Notes under the pieces: generated by a model
Told to the model about the DNA's origin: nothing
The model's database searches: none
What the model saw: only the letters and a program-made list of their open reading frames with translations
Program-made: the position numbers and the translations under genes
DNA from: Eledone cirrhosa
Taxonomy: Eukaryota
NCBI GenBank assembly: GCA_964016885.1
Contig: OZ024755.1
Location: forward strand, 38,192,001-38,256,000
DNA length: 64,000 nucleotides
Direction of reading: 5' to 3'
Shown here: positions 909-56,480 of the stretch, piece after piece
Layout of the letters: the number at the start of each line of letters is the position of its first letter
Numbering within the stretch: position 1 is the stretch's first letter

Positions 909-1119
909 AAAAAAGAAAGAAAAAGTCCCCCTCAACACTTGTGTGTACAGTAGAGAGTTTTTAGGGGTTTTTATTATATTGTTGTTGTATGTAATATCAA
1001 AAGAATGTTTATAGTCAGGCTGTAGAAGTGAAGATATTTTTATTGACCAGATGGCTGGCTGTTATTTACAGAGTCTCTCTACTGTCTGGCAGTAGATGGG
1101 GGAGGGGAGAGTGTTGTCT

Positions 1120-1370
1120 TAGTGTGTGGGTGTGTGAGAGAGAGAGAGAAAGAGTGTGCCTGTGTGTGTGTGAGAGAGAGTGTGTGTCTGTGTGAGAGAT
1201 TGTGTGTCTGTGTGTGTGTGTGAAAGAGAGAGTGTGTATGTGTGTGTGAGAGAGAGAGTGTGTATGTGAGAGAGTGTGTCTGTGTGTGTGTGTGAGAGAG
1301 AGAGTGTGTCTGTGTGAGAGAGAGAGAGTGTGTGAGAGAGATAGTGTGTGTGTGAATGTGTCTGTGTGTA
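1120..1370. repeat. Compound (GT)n/(GA)n microsatellite
   Basis: Direct reading. Confidence 0.9.
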
Positions 1371-1453
1371 TCCTGAACAATAGAAATTGACTGAATTGTC
1401 AAGATGAGGAAAGAGTGGGAAATACTGGGGCCTGAATGACCACTTCCTCTTTG

Positions 1454-1833
1454 CACTGGCTGTCTCTCTAGATTGGTCCCCACCCCACTGGCTGTCTCTC
1501 TAGATTGGTCCCCACCCCACTGGCTGTCCCTCTAGATTGGTCCCCACCCCACTGGTTGTCCCTCTAGATTGGTCCCCACCCCACTGGCTGTCCCTCTAGA
1601 TTGGTCCCCACCCCACTGGTTGTCTCTCTAGACCTCTGTTGTCTTTGGTCCCCACCCCAGTGGCTGCTTCTCTAGACCTCTGTTGTCTTTGGTCCCCACC
1701 CCACTGGCTGCCTCTTTAGACCTCTGTTGTCCTTGGTCCCCACCCCACTGGCTGCCTCTTTAGACCTCTGTTGTCCTTGGTCCCCACCCCACTGGCTGTC
1801 TCTCTAGACTTGTTGTCCTTGGTCCCCACCCCC
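1454..1833. repeat. Minisatellite, about 33-bp unit changing to about 45-bp unit
   Basis: cactggctgtctctctagattggtccccaccc; later units gain a cctctgttgtc insert. Confidence 0.9.
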
Positions 1834-1993
1834 TGCACTGCTGGGCCTGCTTGAGGAGGGCTCCCGTTGAGGTGGTGGTGGCTGTTGCAGCAGGTGTCTC
1901 TGTGGCACCACTCAGACTGGGGTATAGGGGCTGTCCTTTTGCCTCTCCCTTTCTTTCATTGCTTGATCCTTTCTTCTTTCTTTTCTCTTCCCT

Positions 1994-2622
1994 TTAGCCC
2001 TTTAGGATTTAAACCGGCCGGCCGTATCTGGCCAGAATTCTCTCACCTCTTTCTGTTCAAACTGTCCATAACCGGCTGCTTATACTGATGTTTAGGTATT
2101 GTTCTCAAAATAAATAACATCAATATCTCATAGATTTGATATTATGTGCGGTAACACCTTTACCATGAAAATACAATAGTATATATAGAGAAATGTAAAT
2201 GTTATGTGAGATATTATGCGAGGTAAAGCCTTTACTGTGACAATACAATAGTATATATAGAGTAATGTAAATGTTATGTGAGGTAATTATGTGAGATAAA
2301 GCCTTTACTGTGAAATTACAATAGTATATATAGAGTAATGTAAATGTTATGTGAGATAAAGCCTTTACTGTGAAATTACAATAGTATATATAGAGTAATG
2401 TAAATGTTATGTGAGATATTATGTGAGGTAAAGCCTTTACTGTGAAAATACAATAGTATATATAGAGTAATGTAAATGTTATGTGAGATATTATGTGAGG
2501 TAAAGACTTTACTGTGACAATACAATAGTATATATAGAGTAATGTAAATGTTATGTGAGATAAAGCCTTTACTGTGAAAATACAATAGTATATATAGAGT
2601 AATGTAAATGTTAAAGGGTTAA
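1994..2622 (+). mobile_element. piggyBac-like MITE (family A) with internal tandem amplification
   Basis: Ends ccctttag...taaagggTTAA; body matches the copy at 33145-33384; the 3' 60-75 bp segment is repeated about 7 times. Confidence 0.8.
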
Positions 2623-3002
2623 AAGTATGTTTTGTTTTTCTTAGCTACTGAATATCTACTTCTAAGTTGATTAATAAACTGATGTATTTGAAAAATATAG
2701 ATCTCCCTGAGCTCTCCCTCATGTTGACAAGGGTCGGACATAACTAAGGCAGTTCAGATGACCATAGTTTACTCAATCATCATCTTGAGTGTGGGGTGGG
2801 GCAAGTTTGGCAAGGGTGGGGCAAGGTTGGCATGGGTGGGGCAGCATATCTTGGTCTAAGACAGATTACCAGAGATAACGCTTATTTCTTCCATTATATT
2901 AAAACAAATGGAACTATAAAACCATCACCTTTCTCTCTCTCTATCTCTTTTCCTCCATATCTCTCTCTCCCTCTCACTTCCCTTCTTCTTTCTCTCTCTC
3001 TG

Positions 3003-49883: not shown

Positions 49884-50290
49884 AATAGAGAAGACCCGCC
49901 TTACCTAAATACAAAGTAAAACCTACTACAGTCAGTAGGCACCTCTAACAAAATACACCCCCGTCCCACTACCCCCACCCCATCCACACCACCCCTTTCA
50001 ATGTAAAGTTATGTTGGTACCAACATCCAGGCCGAAACAAATGAGGTCGTGTAGGTGTCACGACAAAAAACACACAGTCCACGCTGTAATGTGGCCGTGT
50101 AGGTAACACGGTAAAAACCTCCCAGTTCCACACTGTAAATGTGGTTGGTGTTAGGAAGGGCATCCAGCTGTAGAAAACCCGCCAGACAGTCCTATGCGAG
50201 CAAGACAACCACTCTTGCCTCAAGTGGGAAAACTCCCGTCCAAACCCATGCAAGCGTGGAACATGGACGTTAAACGATGATGATGATGAT
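49884..50290 (+). mobile_element. RTE 3'UTR fragment
   Basis: Near-identical to 40388-40790. Confidence 0.9.
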
Positions 50291-50296
50291 GATATA

Positions 50297-50626
50297 TATT
50301 TAAAAGAATAGAGGTGTAACACACGAGTTATGATATATTGGTAAAAGGAAAAGAAAATCCTGACAAATTGTTCCCAGTGAAAAATAGTTTAATTAGGAAT
50401 AAGTAAAAATTAGTAATAAGTATTGGTTAGTATTCAGTTTTGGTTTTAAATCACGGGCGCTCTATCTCAAAATTATTTTTGAAAAGCATTAGAAATGCGC
50501 AACCGGTAAAAACTTAAAACCAAAACTGAATACTAACCAATACTTATTACTAATTTTTACTTATTCCTAATTAAACTATTTTTCACTGGGAACAATTTGT
50601 CAGCATTTTCTTTTCCTTTTACCAAT
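50297..50626 (-). mobile_element. Fold-back element, 113-bp arms, 64-bp loop
   Basis: Arms 50337-50449 and 50514-50626. Confidence 0.9.
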
Positions 50627-50972
50627 CATCATCATTTTCATCATTTCATTTTACGTCCGCTTTTCCCTGCTTGCACGGGTGGGACGGGAACTGATTCTGG
50701 CTTGATTTCTACAGCTGGATGCCCTTCCTAACACCAACCTCATTTACAGTGAGTGCTGGGTGCTTTTTTGCCATGGCACCTCCACGACCACTTTGCAGTG
50801 GAATGATAGGGACCCCAGTCCCTATCATCTCATTTCTACAGCTGAGTAAACTGGAGCAATGTGAAATAAAGTGTCTTGCTCAAGGAAACAACACATCACC
50901 CGGTCTGAGAATTGAACTCACAACCTTTTGATTGCAAGGACAATGCTCTAACCACTAAACCATGTGCCTCCA
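50627..50972 (-). mobile_element. Full-length tRNA-headed SINE
   Basis: Reverse match to 42851-43190. Confidence 0.9.
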
Positions 50973-51384
50973 TCTAAACCATGTGCCTCCATATATATAT
51001 ATATATATATCATCATCATCTAACATTTTTCCATAATTGGCTTGGGGGCTGTCCCTTGTGGAACAGTGGAGACAATAGGATTAGAATGTGTGTTGTATCT
51101 GTGTGTGTACACATGACAGACAGACAGACAGTAATTAAGTTATAATTTCTCTCCTATCAATCAATTCCCTTTAATCCTATTGTTTCCACTCTACCATTAA
51201 ACATCCTTTACTGACCATCTTTTTTTCCAGCTGAAATTGAAACCAAATCATTATTTACAATGAGACACATATCTGATAACTTAATAACTCTACTTATAAC
51301 TAATCAACAAAGATTGGTGGGGTTTAGCTGGTTTAACCCCTTCTTAACCATATTTATAATGAAATACACCGAATCTTGTTTTCA

Positions 51385-52022
51385 ATCATCATCATCATTG
51401 TTTTACGTCCATTCTTCCATGCTAGCATGGGTTAGACAGGTTGTCCTGTTGTGGACAATGCTAGGTCAGGTGACCATGTCTTGCTTATACAGAACTGATT
51501 TTGGCTCGATTTCTACAGCTGGGTGCCCTTCCTAATGCCAACCTCATTTTCAGTGAGTACTGGGTGTTTTTTTGTTTTGACACCACTTTACAGTGAGGAC
51601 TGGGTGCTTTTTGTTTTGACACCTACATGACCACTTTACAGTGCGTACTGGGTGCTTTTTGTTGTGACACCTACTTGACCACTTTGTAGTGCGTATTGGG
51701 TGCTTTTTCTTTTGACACCTACATGACCACTTTACAGCGTGGACTGGGTGCTTTTTGTTTTGACACCTACATGACCACTTTACAGTGTGGACTGGGTGCT
51801 TTTTGTTTTGCCACCTACATGACCACTTTACAGTGTGGACTGGGTGCTTTTTGTTGTGACACCTACATGACCACTTTGCAGTGCGTATTGGGTGGTTTTG
51901 TTTTGACACCTACATGACCACTTTACAGTGTGGACTGGGTGCTTTTTGTTTTGACACCAACACAACCACTTTACAGTGTGGACTGGGTGCTTTTTGTTTT
52001 TGTCATTACACCTACACAACCA
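51385..52022 (-). mobile_element. SINE/RTE tail with a 48-bp internal unit amplified about 9 times
   Basis: gacacctacatgaccactttacagtgtggactgggtgctttttgtttt. Confidence 0.85.
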
Positions 52023-52898
52023 TTTTATGCTGGATGCTTTTTATCGTGATAGGGAGCTTTTTTAAAAATAATAATGGGTTGATAGTTGTATATATAGTGT
52101 TGTTAGTGGTATATAGTGTTGTTAGAGGTTAGAATAGTTATATAATAGTAATGTAAAGATAGACACCAGAAGGCTATGCCACTGTTATTCATGGTTATAA
52201 TGAGTGATCTTTTACCAATATGTCAATTAGGATTTCGGTGAGAGAGAGAAGGATCTAGAACGTAACAGCTGGTCTGCCACAGAAACATGAGCAGAATATT
52301 GATTTCTAATTGGAAGTTGGGGCAAAAGTTGATTAAATCAACCCCAGTACTTAACTGATACTTTATTTTACCGACCTTAGAATGAAAAATGGCAAAGTTG
52401 ACCTTGGCAGGATTTGAACTCTGAATGTAAGAAGTCAGAATAAATACCACAATAGCATTTTATCTAATGCTCTACCAATTCTGCCAATTCACCACCCTTT
52501 ACATGAACATAATAGTGAAACATGATTTATTAATATATAGATATGTATATACTATATACATTGTCTGTGTATATATATATATATATACACCCAGTTTAGA
52601 ATGTGAAGACTATGGCTTAGTGGTTAGAGAATGGATTCACAATCGTGAGGTTGTGAGTTTGAATTCTGGACCGGGAAATGTGTTATGTCCTTGAGCAAGG
52701 TACTTTATTTCACGTTGCTCTTTCTACCAGGAGTTGCGACCAGTAGATAGGATCAGAGTTAAGGTTTATGTGAGGTGGTGTTTTGTTAGTATTGGCATGG
52801 GAAATAGTCTTCCTTAGAGAACAAAGTAGAACAGAAAAAAGATTTACACACACACACACACACTATCTCTATATATATATATATGCTTACAAACATAT

Positions 52899-52948
<50 letters not shown>

Positions 52949-53067
52949 TCTCTCTATATATATATATATGCTTACAAACATATATTTACACACACACACA
53001 CACACACACTCTCTCTATATATATATATGCTTACAAACATATATTTACACACACACACACACACACA

Positions 53068-53113
<46 letters not shown>

Positions 53114-53159
53114 GCTTACAAACATATATTTACACACACACACGCTCTCTCTTTCTCCC

Positions 53160-53196
<37 letters not shown>

Positions 53197-53559
53197 ATAC
53201 TTACTAACATATATAAACACATATGTCTTTAGTATTATCACTTGTACTGTCACTCTATAAATATAAGACACTGTACTATTTTCCTAAACATTTGCAGCTG
53301 TTTTCTCTACCTACTAAACACTGCTCCCTTACCCCCCCCCCCCCCCCCGTCTATATTTATTATTTTACACTGTTGTTGTTTTCATGTGTTTTTTGTTGTT
53401 TCTTTTGACCGGGTGGGGTTCTATTCCCTGTCAACCATTCCAGATCCCCCCCTCCCCAACAACAACAACAACAACTACCAATACTGACAAAATGTATTTT
53501 CTTCCCATCTGTTTTTTCTTCCTTTTTATTCATGTATATTTCTGGAGTTGTACTTGTCT

Positions 53560-54695
53560 TGCAAGTGACTTCCCCTGAGACTGACTTCATCTGAGACTGT
53601 GACTTCACCTGAGACTGTGACTTCACCTGAGACTGTGACTTGATCTGAGACTGTAAGTGACTTGATCTGAGACTGTGACTTCATCTGAGACTGTAAGTGA
53701 CTTCATCTGAGACTGTGACTTCATCTGAGACTGTGACTTGATCTGAGACTGTAAGTGACTTCATCTGAGACTGTAAGTGACTTCATCTGAGACTGTGACT
53801 TCATCTGAGACTGTGACTTGATCTGAGACTGTGACTTCACCTGAGACTGTAAGTGACTTCACCTGAGACTGTGACTTGATCTGAGACTGTGACTTCACCT
53901 GAGACTGTGACTTCACCTGAGACTGTGACTTCATCTGAGACTGTGACTTCATCTGAGACTGTAAGTGACTTCATCTGAGACTGTAAGTGACTTCATCTGA
54001 GACTGCAAGTGACTTCATCTGAGACTGTAAGTGACTTCACCTGAGACTGTGACTTAACCTGAGACTGTGACTTAACCTGAGACTGTGACTTGATCTGAGA
54101 CTGTAAGTGACTTCATCTGAGACTGCAAGTGACTTCATCTGAGACTGCAAGTGACTTCATCTGAGACTGTAAGTGACTTCATCTGAGACTGCAAGTGACT
54201 TCATCTGAGACTGCAAGTGACTTCATCTGAGACTGTAAGTAACTTCATCTGGGACTGCAAGTGACTTCATCTGAGACTGCAAGTGACTTCATCTGGGACT
54301 GCAAGTAACTTCATCTGGGACTGCAAGTGACTTCATCTGAGACTGCAAGTGACTTCATCTGGGACTGCAAGTGACTTCATCTGAGACTGCAAGTGACTTC
54401 ATCTGAGACTGTAAGTGACTTCATCTGAGACTGCAAGTGACTTCATCTGAGACTGCAAGTGACTTCATCTGAGACTGCAAGTGACTTCATCTGAGACTGC
54501 AAGTGACTTCATCTGAGACTGTAAGTGACTTCATCTGAGACTGCAAGTGACTTCATCTGAGACTGCAAGTGACTTCATCTGAGACTGTAAGTGACTTCAT
54601 CTGAGACTGTAAGTGACTTCATCTGAGACTGTAAGTGACTTCATCTGAGACTGTAAATGACTTCATCTGAGACTGTAAGTGACTTCATCTGAGAC
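53560..54695. repeat. 18/22-bp minisatellite
   Basis: gtgacttcatctgagact with or without gtaa/gcaa. Confidence 0.95.
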
Positions 54696-56148
54696 CCTAT
54701 GTTGAAACAAAAGCAATTACGACATGGAAAAGTCATGTTTAGACCTTCAATTTAATCTAATCTGGCCGAGTTTACACTCACAAATAAGAACCAGGGCCGC
54801 CCCTAGGAGCATTGGATTTGGTGTACTTCATATTTGTTTCGGTTGCTGAATACAACCAGGGGTCACTGCTTCTCCTGAAGGTCAATAGTTCTCTTCTAAC
54901 TCGAGCGGGAGCGCCTTTCCATTGTCAATTTGCATTGATCATCTGCAAAGCCACATTGTTCTCAGAACCACTACACCAGTCTTTTGATGTGTGCAGCTGG
55001 AACTACTGCCACCCATTGATTTGGCAGGGTTTTTTTTGTTTTTTTTTTCAAAACACCCATAAAAACTGATAACTTCCAATATCCTGTAATGATTTATCAG
55101 AAAATATCTAAAAACATGTTTATTAGTTCAAATGTTTATTGTATCTTTACTGGTGGATAGATTGTGAAAATTTGCAGTATTAGAATACAGACTAATTAAT
55201 AATGTGATGCAGCCATATAAGGTTTGTTCCCAAAATAAGGGAACTCATGTTTTATTTAAATGTATATTAGATGTACACAAAGTTATCTCGTTCAAAATAT
55301 GGCCCTTGGGAAGTCACACAGTGGTTCAAATGTGTTTTCCATTGATTGTAACAGTACCAGAAGACATTTTCTTTGAGTGTCCTTAGCTCATTGGTTACAA
55401 ATTTTTTGTATGTTTTCCACAGTCCCAATATGATGACCCTTCAAACTTGGTTACAATTTGGGTAAGAAGTAGAAATCTCACTTATGATTGCTTTGGTACT
55501 TTTCAAGAATGCCTTACTTATGTGGTTTTATGTGGTACATGCAGGACATTAGAAATTAAATTCAGTTTACACATATCAGTAAAACTGTCAGTGACCATGC
55601 TGCAGTGCAAGGAGCATTGTGACACTAAGAAAATGATAAATGAAAATAAGATTTTGACAGTTTTTATGTGTAGTTTTGAAATGCCAAACTGATTCTTCCA
55701 TGATGTAATTGCAAATCATTGACAACTCACACCTATTCAAGTTTAGCTGGCTTTTTTATGAGGTTACATCCCATGGGAACAGGGTCAGACCTAGTGAAAG
55801 GAGAGGGGCCAAATGCCCTGCCTCTTCCCCATCAAACAGAGCCCATTTGTCTGAACAGGACCCCCTTATTTTTTCTTCCTCTTTCTTTCTCTGCTTATGT
55901 GCATGTATATATATATATATATATATAAATTTAAATTCAGCGAGAATCACATTTAGGTGGGTAGAAAGAACGAAACGTAATGCAAATTCAGGGTCATGCT
56001 GGCTAAAAAACTAGAGCTATAAACATAGGTTATAAACGCCATACAAACCAAGATGGCGGTCAAGAAGGCATTAACCGCCTAAGCCAAAAAACAAGTCAAG
56101 CTAAACAGGTCAGACAAAATAAAAGACATAATCATACATGTATATATA

Positions 56149-56480
56149 TATTTAAAAGAATAGAGGTGTAACACACAAGTTATGATATATTGGTAAACGG
56201 AAAAGAAAATGCTGACAAATTGTTCACAGTGAAAAATAGTTTAATTAGGAATAAGTGAAAATTAGTAATAGTATTGGTTAGTATTCAGTTTTGGTTTTAA
56301 GTTTTACCGGTTGCGCATTTCTAATGCTTTTCAAAAATAATTTTGAGATAGAGCGCCCGTGACTTAAAACCAAAACTGAATACTAACCAATACTTATTAC
56401 TAATTTTCACTTATTCCTAATTAAACTATTTTTCACTGGGAACAATTTGTCAGCATTTTCTTTTCCGTTTACCAATATAT
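56149..56480 (-). mobile_element. Fold-back element, same family as 50297-50626, with the loop in opposite orientation
   Basis: Arms 56185-56301 and 56363-56480. Confidence 0.9.

Follow-up and report, generated by a model that had tools for sequence, protein, structure and literature searches.

How did two neighbouring hairpins that share their arms and a one-sided tail come to carry their loops in opposite orientations? The window analysed here, 64 000 nucleotides of Eledone cirrhosa DNA, holds two such structures at positions 50,297–56,480, which we call copies A and B (Table 1; q denotes a position on the coordinates of a long copy of the element). That these are real hairpins with opposite loops, as the original prediction had it, was confirmed: each has a left tail about 38 nt long, two arms of 113–114 nt and a loop of 61–64 nt. 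Except for a single T of a T-run and one junction base, the A loop is the reverse complement of the B loop. The loop boundaries are not strictly identical (150|213 in A, 212|151 in B); alternatively, both copies have one junction that differs by one substitution. The final bases of the A tail merge into a TA repeat. The copies lie 5.9 kb apart and their flanks are unrelated, which rules out a segmental duplication as their source. Likewise, a single composite insertion that captured a 5.5-kb spacer was discarded, as A and B possess separate left tails and separate flanks. A simple inversion between A and B was rejected on anatomy as well: with breakpoints in the arms, both tails would have ended up on one copy and the other would lack a tail. 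A search for an exon between A and B found no long frame in the candidate region.

Table 1. Parts of copies A and B in the window, as read on the Penelope-like family.
Feature	Window positions	Strand	Remarks
Copy A one-sided tail, 3′ extension of Penelope-like element	50299..50336	-	about 34–38 nt
Copy A tail-side (short) arm	50337..50449	-	q39–150; S2 plus one private substitution
Copy A loop, S2 type	50450..50513	+	extra length of tail-less arm, q213 down to q151
Copy A tail-less inverted arm	50514..50626	+	subfamily S2
Copy B one-sided tail	56151..56188	-	
Copy B tail-side arm	56189..56301	-	q39–151; subfamily S1
Copy B loop, S1 type	56302..56362	-	extra length of tail-side arm, q152–212
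Copy B tail-less inverted (short) arm	56363..56476	+	S1/S2 mosaic

Similarity searches, each with 40 scored candidates, returned 92 and 97 matches to the hairpins; this is a repeat family and not a chance match. As its long relatives run on into a reverse transcriptase (RT) gene that has a GIY-YIG endonuclease (EN) at its C-terminal end, A and B are almost certainly 5′-truncated copies of a Penelope-like retrotransposon, each composed of one arm that bears the tail and an inverted one that lacks it. The RT was recognized in long copy L042 (RVT_1, PF00078, E 5.8e-07), and the RT translation of a long copy contains a DKG motif. GIY-YIG was recognized in long copy L047 (PF01541, E 6e-07); reading the translation by eye, we found the CCHH residues (two Cys between GIY and YIG, two His downstream) and a C-X4-C-X2-C linker upstream. 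RT and EN follow one another in this order on one strand, and stops or frameshifts break every long copy examined. From the ORF strand in the long copies, the sense strand of the element in copy A is the minus strand. Insertions of the family are flanked by TA repeats, which would mask a target-site duplication of the kind expected for MITEs and foldback DNA transposons. Judged by domain layout (C-terminal EN, CX2-5CxxC linker, TA-repeat targets), the element would belong to the Neptune/Nematis type; the Atlas neighbours of its RT are unnamed animal RT clusters. A tandem-plus-inverted arrangement was seen in one copy (L076), and no complete pLTR-ORF-pLTR unit was found within 8-kb stretches of long copies.

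Endonuclease-bearing Penelope-like elements with an inverted pseudo-LTR and an optional tail are described in PMC3846280, PMC8557442 and PMC11167929. The Eledone family resembles them in having an RT with DKG and, after it, a CCHH-bearing GIY-YIG that is preceded by a CX2-5CxxC linker, in heavy 5′ truncation, in the inverted truncated arm with a one-sided tail of 30–40 nt, and in TA-repeat targets and a palindrome at many inverted junctions. In contrast to the canonical Penelope clades, whose pLTR typically holds a hammerhead ribozyme, none was found in the long copies examined: an Rfam scan of L034 (380–4800) detected no hammerhead, the 5′ ends of the copies being incomplete, and a hammerhead core pattern gave one unconvincing match across five copies with likewise incomplete 5′ ends. 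Otherwise, Rfam returned sub-threshold matches to simple repeats only. Element class and inverted-arm-plus-tail anatomy are already known, and the addition made here is modest; loop-orientation counts, same-junction isomers and exchange between neighbours are absent from the passages of these three accounts that were compared.

To see how the loop is defined, we turn to a survey of 78 hairpins, in which a segmental-duplicate pair (L084/L085 on C5) was entered once. The tail was on a single side in 77 of these, and the tail-less arm ended at q35 in 72. Scoring of the flip:flop ratio in the 77 tailed hairpins gave a longer tail arm in 28, a shorter one in 34 and equal arms in 15; the corresponding ratio was 6:10:11 in the set not selected for junction likeness. 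The descriptive claim of loops in both orientations with respect to the tail is therefore right, and it holds across the family. Constancy of the loop boundaries did not hold, since they differ widely between the 78 copies. The longer arm ended at q213–234 in 24/28 hairpins of the set not selected for junction likeness, and a 13-nt palindrome lies at q221–233, near which long arms mostly stop. The loop is very probably the stretch by which one arm outruns the other and, being an arm-length difference, it can take either orientation relative to the tail.

Individual junctions recur. Junction 213|226, with a 3-nt overlap, is present in six exact copies on C2, C3 and C8, with the tail on the short side in two, on the long side in three and without a side call in one. 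Five exact copies of junction 138|229 (4-nt overlap) were found on four chromosomes and in several subfamilies, four of them long-side and one short-side. Both recurrent microhomology junctions arise on unlinked chromosomes in either orientation. An overlap of at least 2 nt was seen at 22/33 simple asymmetric junctions, compared with ∼16% for random joins, in an enriched sample of which six junctions belong to one class.

We then compared the arms with each other, omitting nine of the 78 hairpins in which one arm was too short. Both arms had an identical five-site haplotype in 52/69 hairpins, compared with a mean of 16.8 and a maximum of 26 in 2000 shuffles. At the level of the family, this upholds the earlier proposal that both arms were regenerated from one template at insertion. 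The accompanying suggestion of later homogenization as a general process is not borne out: of 105 variants private to one hairpin, 99 reside in a single arm, which dates the co-variation to insertion, and the six that both arms share belong, without exception, to a single older copy. Intermediate haplotypes also exist (L096, L221).

The subfamilies differ at four arm sites; A is of type S2, and the long arm of B is of type S1. The original prediction of co-varying arms in A and B was right for the two sites it cited, which match within and differ between the copies, but missed two others (arm positions about 38 and 82), at which the two arms of B differ from each other and the right one has the A-type base. 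The arms differ pairwise at one site in A (left/right) and two in B; between copies, A-right/B-right differ at two, A-left/B-right at three, A-right/B-left at four and A-left/B-left at five. In both copies, the loop is of the same subfamily type as the arm that it continues. The long arms of A and B differ at the four subfamily sites, the T-run and a tail site, and each matches a separate abundant subfamily. Hence, A and B are not isomers of one template. The outer 90 nt of the tail-less arm of A have 225 exact genome matches, and the tail, tail-side arm and loop of B are jointly 99–100% identical to long copies. The outer 90 nt of B's tail-less arm match exactly at two places, B itself and one site on C23.

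Why, then, do two copies of different subfamilies have nearly the same junction? Genome-wide counts were made with exact patterns, which miss mutated copies, because the similarity search was incomplete (with B as query, A was absent among the 40 scored candidates). The 30-mer spanning the A/B junction occurs exactly twice in 3.0 Gb, in A and in B, and its reversed control not at all. Two control junctions without overlap were single-copy, which makes two copies of the A/B junction 5.9 kb apart unusual. In addition, the short arm of B has A-type alleles at two of the four sites. The explanation we favour for the near-identical junction, at roughly even odds, is that A locally converted B. Such a tract must be patchy, because B keeps the S1 T-run, the S1 junction base and S1 alleles at two of the four arm sites.

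Our account of the locus, which joins truncated Penelope-like hairpins, a loop set by arm length and local A-to-B conversion, is on the whole somewhat favoured. The endonuclease would nick both strands of a TA repeat, and two cDNAs from one RNA source would be initiated at the pair of sites that delimit the tail; the Penelope-like protein of PMC11167929 cuts and extends both strands, and it starts at two such sites. The cDNAs would usually halt near the palindrome and be joined head to head, often via 2–4 nt of microhomology, with either strand as the longer one. More speculatively, B may at first have been a longer S1 hairpin that broke near its apex; repair from A in inverted register, with correction in patches, could have brought in the junction along with some of the short arm. 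Unspaced inverted repeats are preferred targets of homology-directed repair according to PMC3300023.

A possible second case of such exchange is L010, where a young S1 copy and an adjoining older S2 copy have about 115 nt of centre in common, including the junction and private substitutions, in inverted register as in A/B. These copies are about 100 bp apart, a distance at which polishing errors are plausible. L010 is the only one of seven loci with neighbouring fold-back pairs elsewhere that has a common centre (the others are L015, L135, L170, L197, L207 and L257), in a count that leaves out L036, L123, L125, L261 and L263, where the second piece is a lone arm with no junction. The prediction that a mixed arm always has a donor neighbour failed in three of four cases, as L016, L013 and L082 have mixed arms without an S2 neighbour within about 10 kb. 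If neighbouring hairpins do overwrite each other's centres, shared junctions would be useless for inferring the descent of copies.

Several other explanations were weighed against this account. The A/B match could be a coincidence of independent insertions from different subfamilies whose arms ended on mild hot spots one base apart. Each junction reads mutation-free on its own subfamily, each long arm is native to its subfamily (S2 in A, S1 in B), the flanks are unrelated, ends at q213 (L056, L096) and q150–156 (L143, L062, L173) recur, the former with unrelated partners, and the pair was picked as an oddity out of many windows. However, 3 Gb hold no third exact copy of this junction class, hairpins seldom lie within 5 kb of one another (2/40 windows), and a rough estimate, assuming 1,000–3,000 hairpins, gives < 0.1 such pairs per genome; coincidence would also leave the A-type alleles in B's short arm to be accounted for, and we consider it unlikely. 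Slightly less credence goes to an assembly or polishing artefact, in which reads of one hairpin were placed on the other to yield the common centre and B's mixed arm. The site-by-site alternation of S1 and S2 in that arm resembles majority votes over mixed reads, its pattern recurs once on C23, and such structures trouble assemblies (PMC8557442). Against this, the copies have unique flanks at their 5.9-kb distance, A has no reciprocal S1 alleles, and opposite loops are found on unlinked chromosomes across the family, independently of this locus. Moreover, polishing rarely replaces a 60-nt loop. Short-read contigs of four runs compared with copy A gave a family-wide signal only, with no junction-bridging piece among the matches listed, a result that speaks neither for nor against an artefact.

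The joining step, though not the identity of the family, has a further rival: symmetric hairpins centred on q221–233 might be shortened in one arm, or have their spacer inverted when the polymerase switches templates, and orientation would then be set after retrotransposition. Symmetric 233|233 hairpins are indeed common, five copies (L014, L017, L023, L055, L062) keep the apex although an inner segment is missing from one of their arms, and a later one-sided deletion is indistinguishable in sequence from joining at insertion. Template-switch inversion with arm homogenization is documented in yeast, at one locus over time and with spacers of 2–5 bp (PMC8604942). The Eledone loops are like these in lying inverted between inverted arms but differ in that orientation varies between separate insertions. 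In addition, that process predicts private variants in both arms, whereas 99 of the 105 are in a single arm; the loops of A and B match the subfamily of the arm they continue, and very young copies (98–100% identical to long copies) are already asymmetric. We hold this origin of the loops to be possible but doubtful. That a multimeric Penelope complex with RNAs of two subfamilies left true flip/flop isomers in shared register 5.9 kb apart in one event is quite improbable; if true, same-junction isomer pairs would document directly, in the genome, the way inverted ends are built. Least probable are true isomers from a hairpin-primed intermediate, its tail resolved to either end, that inserted twice nearby. 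The junction class is private to neighbours A and B, and PMC8557442 allows a tail at either end, perhaps via resolution of an intermediate, but one template cannot give both long arms, and the rest of the genome shows no spread of the A/B hairpin as a unit.

The original analogy with flip/flop isomers made by hairpin-primed replication is accordingly not sustained for a Penelope-like element with varied boundaries and, in A and B, different subfamilies. In parvoviruses such as AAV, the asymmetric inner part of a terminal palindrome occurs in both orientations while the outside is fixed; both isomers arise from one template with fixed boundaries, and a Rep-type initiator is encoded. The Eledone hairpins share the inner part in either orientation within a fixed outside, but are chromosomal retrotransposon fragments whose boundaries vary from copy to copy, with different templates for A and B, and their element encodes RT and GIY-YIG, not Rep. 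MITEs and foldback DNA transposons are short, non-coding palindromic repeats of high copy number, which applies here too, but they form a fixed unit with symmetric termini. Unlike them, the Eledone family has a one-sided tail and asymmetric termini, arms whose length varies and sequence that runs on into an RT gene, and the A/B junction, found only twice, has not spread with its hairpin as a fixed unit.

How Penelope-like elements make inverted ends and a one-sided tail is an open question (PMC8557442, PMC11167929), for which this family offers countable marks: a single source for both arms, a fixed tail-less end, one microhomology junction whose tail can be on either side, and long arms that mostly stop near the palindrome. 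The either-side symmetry is easier to reconcile with head-to-head joining of two equivalent cDNAs than with a single fold-back that begins at the tail end.

Among the matches listed in a DNA-similarity search with copy B, one of the two tailed hairpins in the window, many copies matched only its tail, one arm and the loop (at 99%) and then continued. These long copies extend > 4 kb into an open reading frame that encodes a reverse transcriptase (PF00078, E = 5.8e-07) and, C-terminal to it, a GIY-YIG domain (PF01541, E = 6e-07); every long copy examined was broken. Their translations contain a DKG motif, GIY and YIG motifs that enclose two cysteines and are followed by two histidines, and a C-X4-C-X2-C linker, i.e. 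the layout described for Neptune/Nematis-type Penelope-like elements (PMC8557442), the likeness being one of domain layout. No hammerhead was found in an Rfam scan of long copy L034 (380-4800) or with a core pattern in five copies, which have incomplete 5′ ends and gave one unconvincing match. Both the element class and its anatomy, an inverted truncated arm with a one-sided tail of 30-40 nt, are already published (PMC3846280, PMC8557442), and the family itself may already be in the library of PMC8557442.

To map the hairpins, we placed 78 distinct examples, drawn from 210 loci, on an actual long copy, whose positions are denoted q. The tail was one-sided in 77 of these 78 short hairpins, whereas two longer insertions (L138 and L167) have a tail at both ends; the tail-less arm ended at q35 in 72 of the 78. 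In every mapped hairpin, a tail arm reaching position a is joined to an inverted arm reaching position b (junction a|b). The segment separating a from b forms the loop, whose direction reveals the longer arm. Among the 77 tailed hairpins, the tail arm was longer in 28, shorter in 34 and within 2 nt of the inverted arm in 15; in a subset chosen solely by exact arm match (n = 27), these numbers were 6, 10 and 11 respectively. The longer arm of the exact-match hairpins stopped at q213-234 in 24/28, at, or just short of, a 13-nt palindrome (q221-233). Isomers of the same junction were seen on unlinked chromosomes and spanned subfamilies. Specifically, junction 213|226 has six exact copies (two with a short-side tail, three with a long-side tail and one with no side assigned) and junction 138|229 has five (one and four respectively), both with 3-4 nt of microhomology. 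Overlaps of ≥ 2 nt were present at 22 of 33 simple asymmetric junctions, compared with ∼16% for random ones, in a sample enriched by the queries used; 16 other junctions carried extra bases. The flip/flop arrangement is thus probably a general by-product of the family's joining step. The junctions of L014, L017, L023, L055, L062, L120 and L155 show a small local fold-back or a re-copied piece of q196-233, pointing to possible repeated template jumps near the apex.

The original prediction held that each hairpin was regenerated from one template or homogenised afterwards. The former holds family-wide: one five-site haplotype was present in both arms of 52/69 hairpins (shuffled mean 16.8, maximum 26), and arms differed on average by 2.7 within copies vs. 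5.2 between them. Homogenization does not emerge as a general process, as 99 hairpin-private variants were confined to a single arm and only six, all from one older copy, were in both. Together, the haplotype match and the single-armed private variants indicate that both arms begin from one source and afterwards diverge; B is among the 17 hairpins without matching arm haplotypes.

Read from the sequence, insertion involves a TA-repeat target and two fixed outer ends separated by the tail length; the two arms share one source, their inner ends vary, and the joins show microhomology and occur in both orientations. A Penelope-like protein can cut both strands of AT-rich DNA and extend them, with reverse transcription beginning at two sites delimiting the tail (PMC11167929). 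From this report and the symmetry of the hairpins, opposite nicks would prime two cDNAs, which would then be joined head to head, and either of which may end up longer. Were the tail end simply to fold back once, only the tail-long form would be expected and the fixed tail-less end would go unaccounted for; PMC3846280 nevertheless prefers self-priming, for which the q221-233 palindrome would suit as a stopping or folding point. That loops arise later, by one-sided deletion or template-switch inversion (PMC8604942), we consider rather unlikely. A literature search for Penelope retrotransposons and flip/flop listed no paper that was on the subject by its title; our counts should be useful for the open question of the joining mechanism.

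Positions and structure of copies A and B and of other features
Feature	Position	Description
Copy A	window 50299-50626	left tail ∼38 nt, arms 113-114 nt, loop 61-64 nt
Copy B	window 56151-56476	left tail ∼38 nt, arms 113-114 nt, loop 61-64 nt
Repeats directly bordering A	window 50000-50290, 50627-50975	two short interspersed repeats, tail-to-tail, both terminating in ATG/CAT repeats
Expanded unit	window 51560-52020	∼40-nt unit tandemly expanded within short interspersed repeat
Tandem array between A and B	window 53577-54700	18- and 22-nt units, mixed grading to pure 22-nt
Mixed arm haplotype	window 56363-56476; L082 1463-1689	alternating S1/S2, two occurrences
L010	895-1834 (chromosome G000:C1, ∼25.458 Mb)	two hairpins, outer arms differing despite identical centre
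L138; L167	2249-5758; 3314-4650	longer insertions
L084; L085	chromosome G000:C5, 35.336 and 35.353 Mb	two identical hairpins with common flanks, spaced 16.6 kb

Except for one T in a T-run and one junction base, the loop of B is the reverse complement of that of A, and the flanks of the two copies are unrelated. Pairwise, the arms differ at one position inside A, two inside B and two to five across copies. The two diagnostic sites originally cited as distinguishing A from B are correct, and there the arms of each copy match; at two further, overlooked sites, the arms of B differ and its right arm agrees with A. Copy A is pure S2, an abundant subfamily, an A arm having 225 exact matches in the genome (3.0 Gb for all genome-wide counts), while the tail, long arm and loop of B belong to another abundant subfamily, S1, and its short arm is an S1/S2 mixture present only twice. 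Since a single template cannot yield both S1 and S2, the proposal that A and B are isomers of one replicating hairpin had to be abandoned. The mixed arm haplotype retains the G or C allele at most substitution sites, which might reflect GC-biased heteroduplex repair or a consensus tie-break.

The junction pattern shared by A and B occurs only there in 3 Gb. Its microhomology does not exceed 1 nt, and each of two overlap-free control junctions was single-copy. We see an even chance that the B junction came from local gene conversion with A as donor. A precedent may be L010, in which a young S1 copy and a neighbouring older S2 copy have an identical ∼115-nt centre, including private substitutions, in inverted register; no other locus points as plainly to local overwriting or to a polishing error, and we tentatively read it as overwriting. 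Conversion is also in line with the attraction of homology-directed repair to unspaced inverted repeats (PMC3300023). On the other hand, A and B can be taken for two distinct junctions a single base apart, neither needing a mutation, and B has kept S1 bases not only in its loop but also at two arm sites and the junction itself. Moreover, mixed arms had no neighbour in three of the four cases checked, and the centre was shared in only one of seven other neighbour pairs. Of the other accounts of the A/B match, in descending order of probability, chance is unlikely, an assembly artefact a little more doubtful, and a shared intermediate improbable. L084 and L085 reflect either a segmental duplication in tandem or haplotypes that were not collapsed. 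At copy A, the right-hand bordering repeat adjoins the arm at the place normally held by a TA run.
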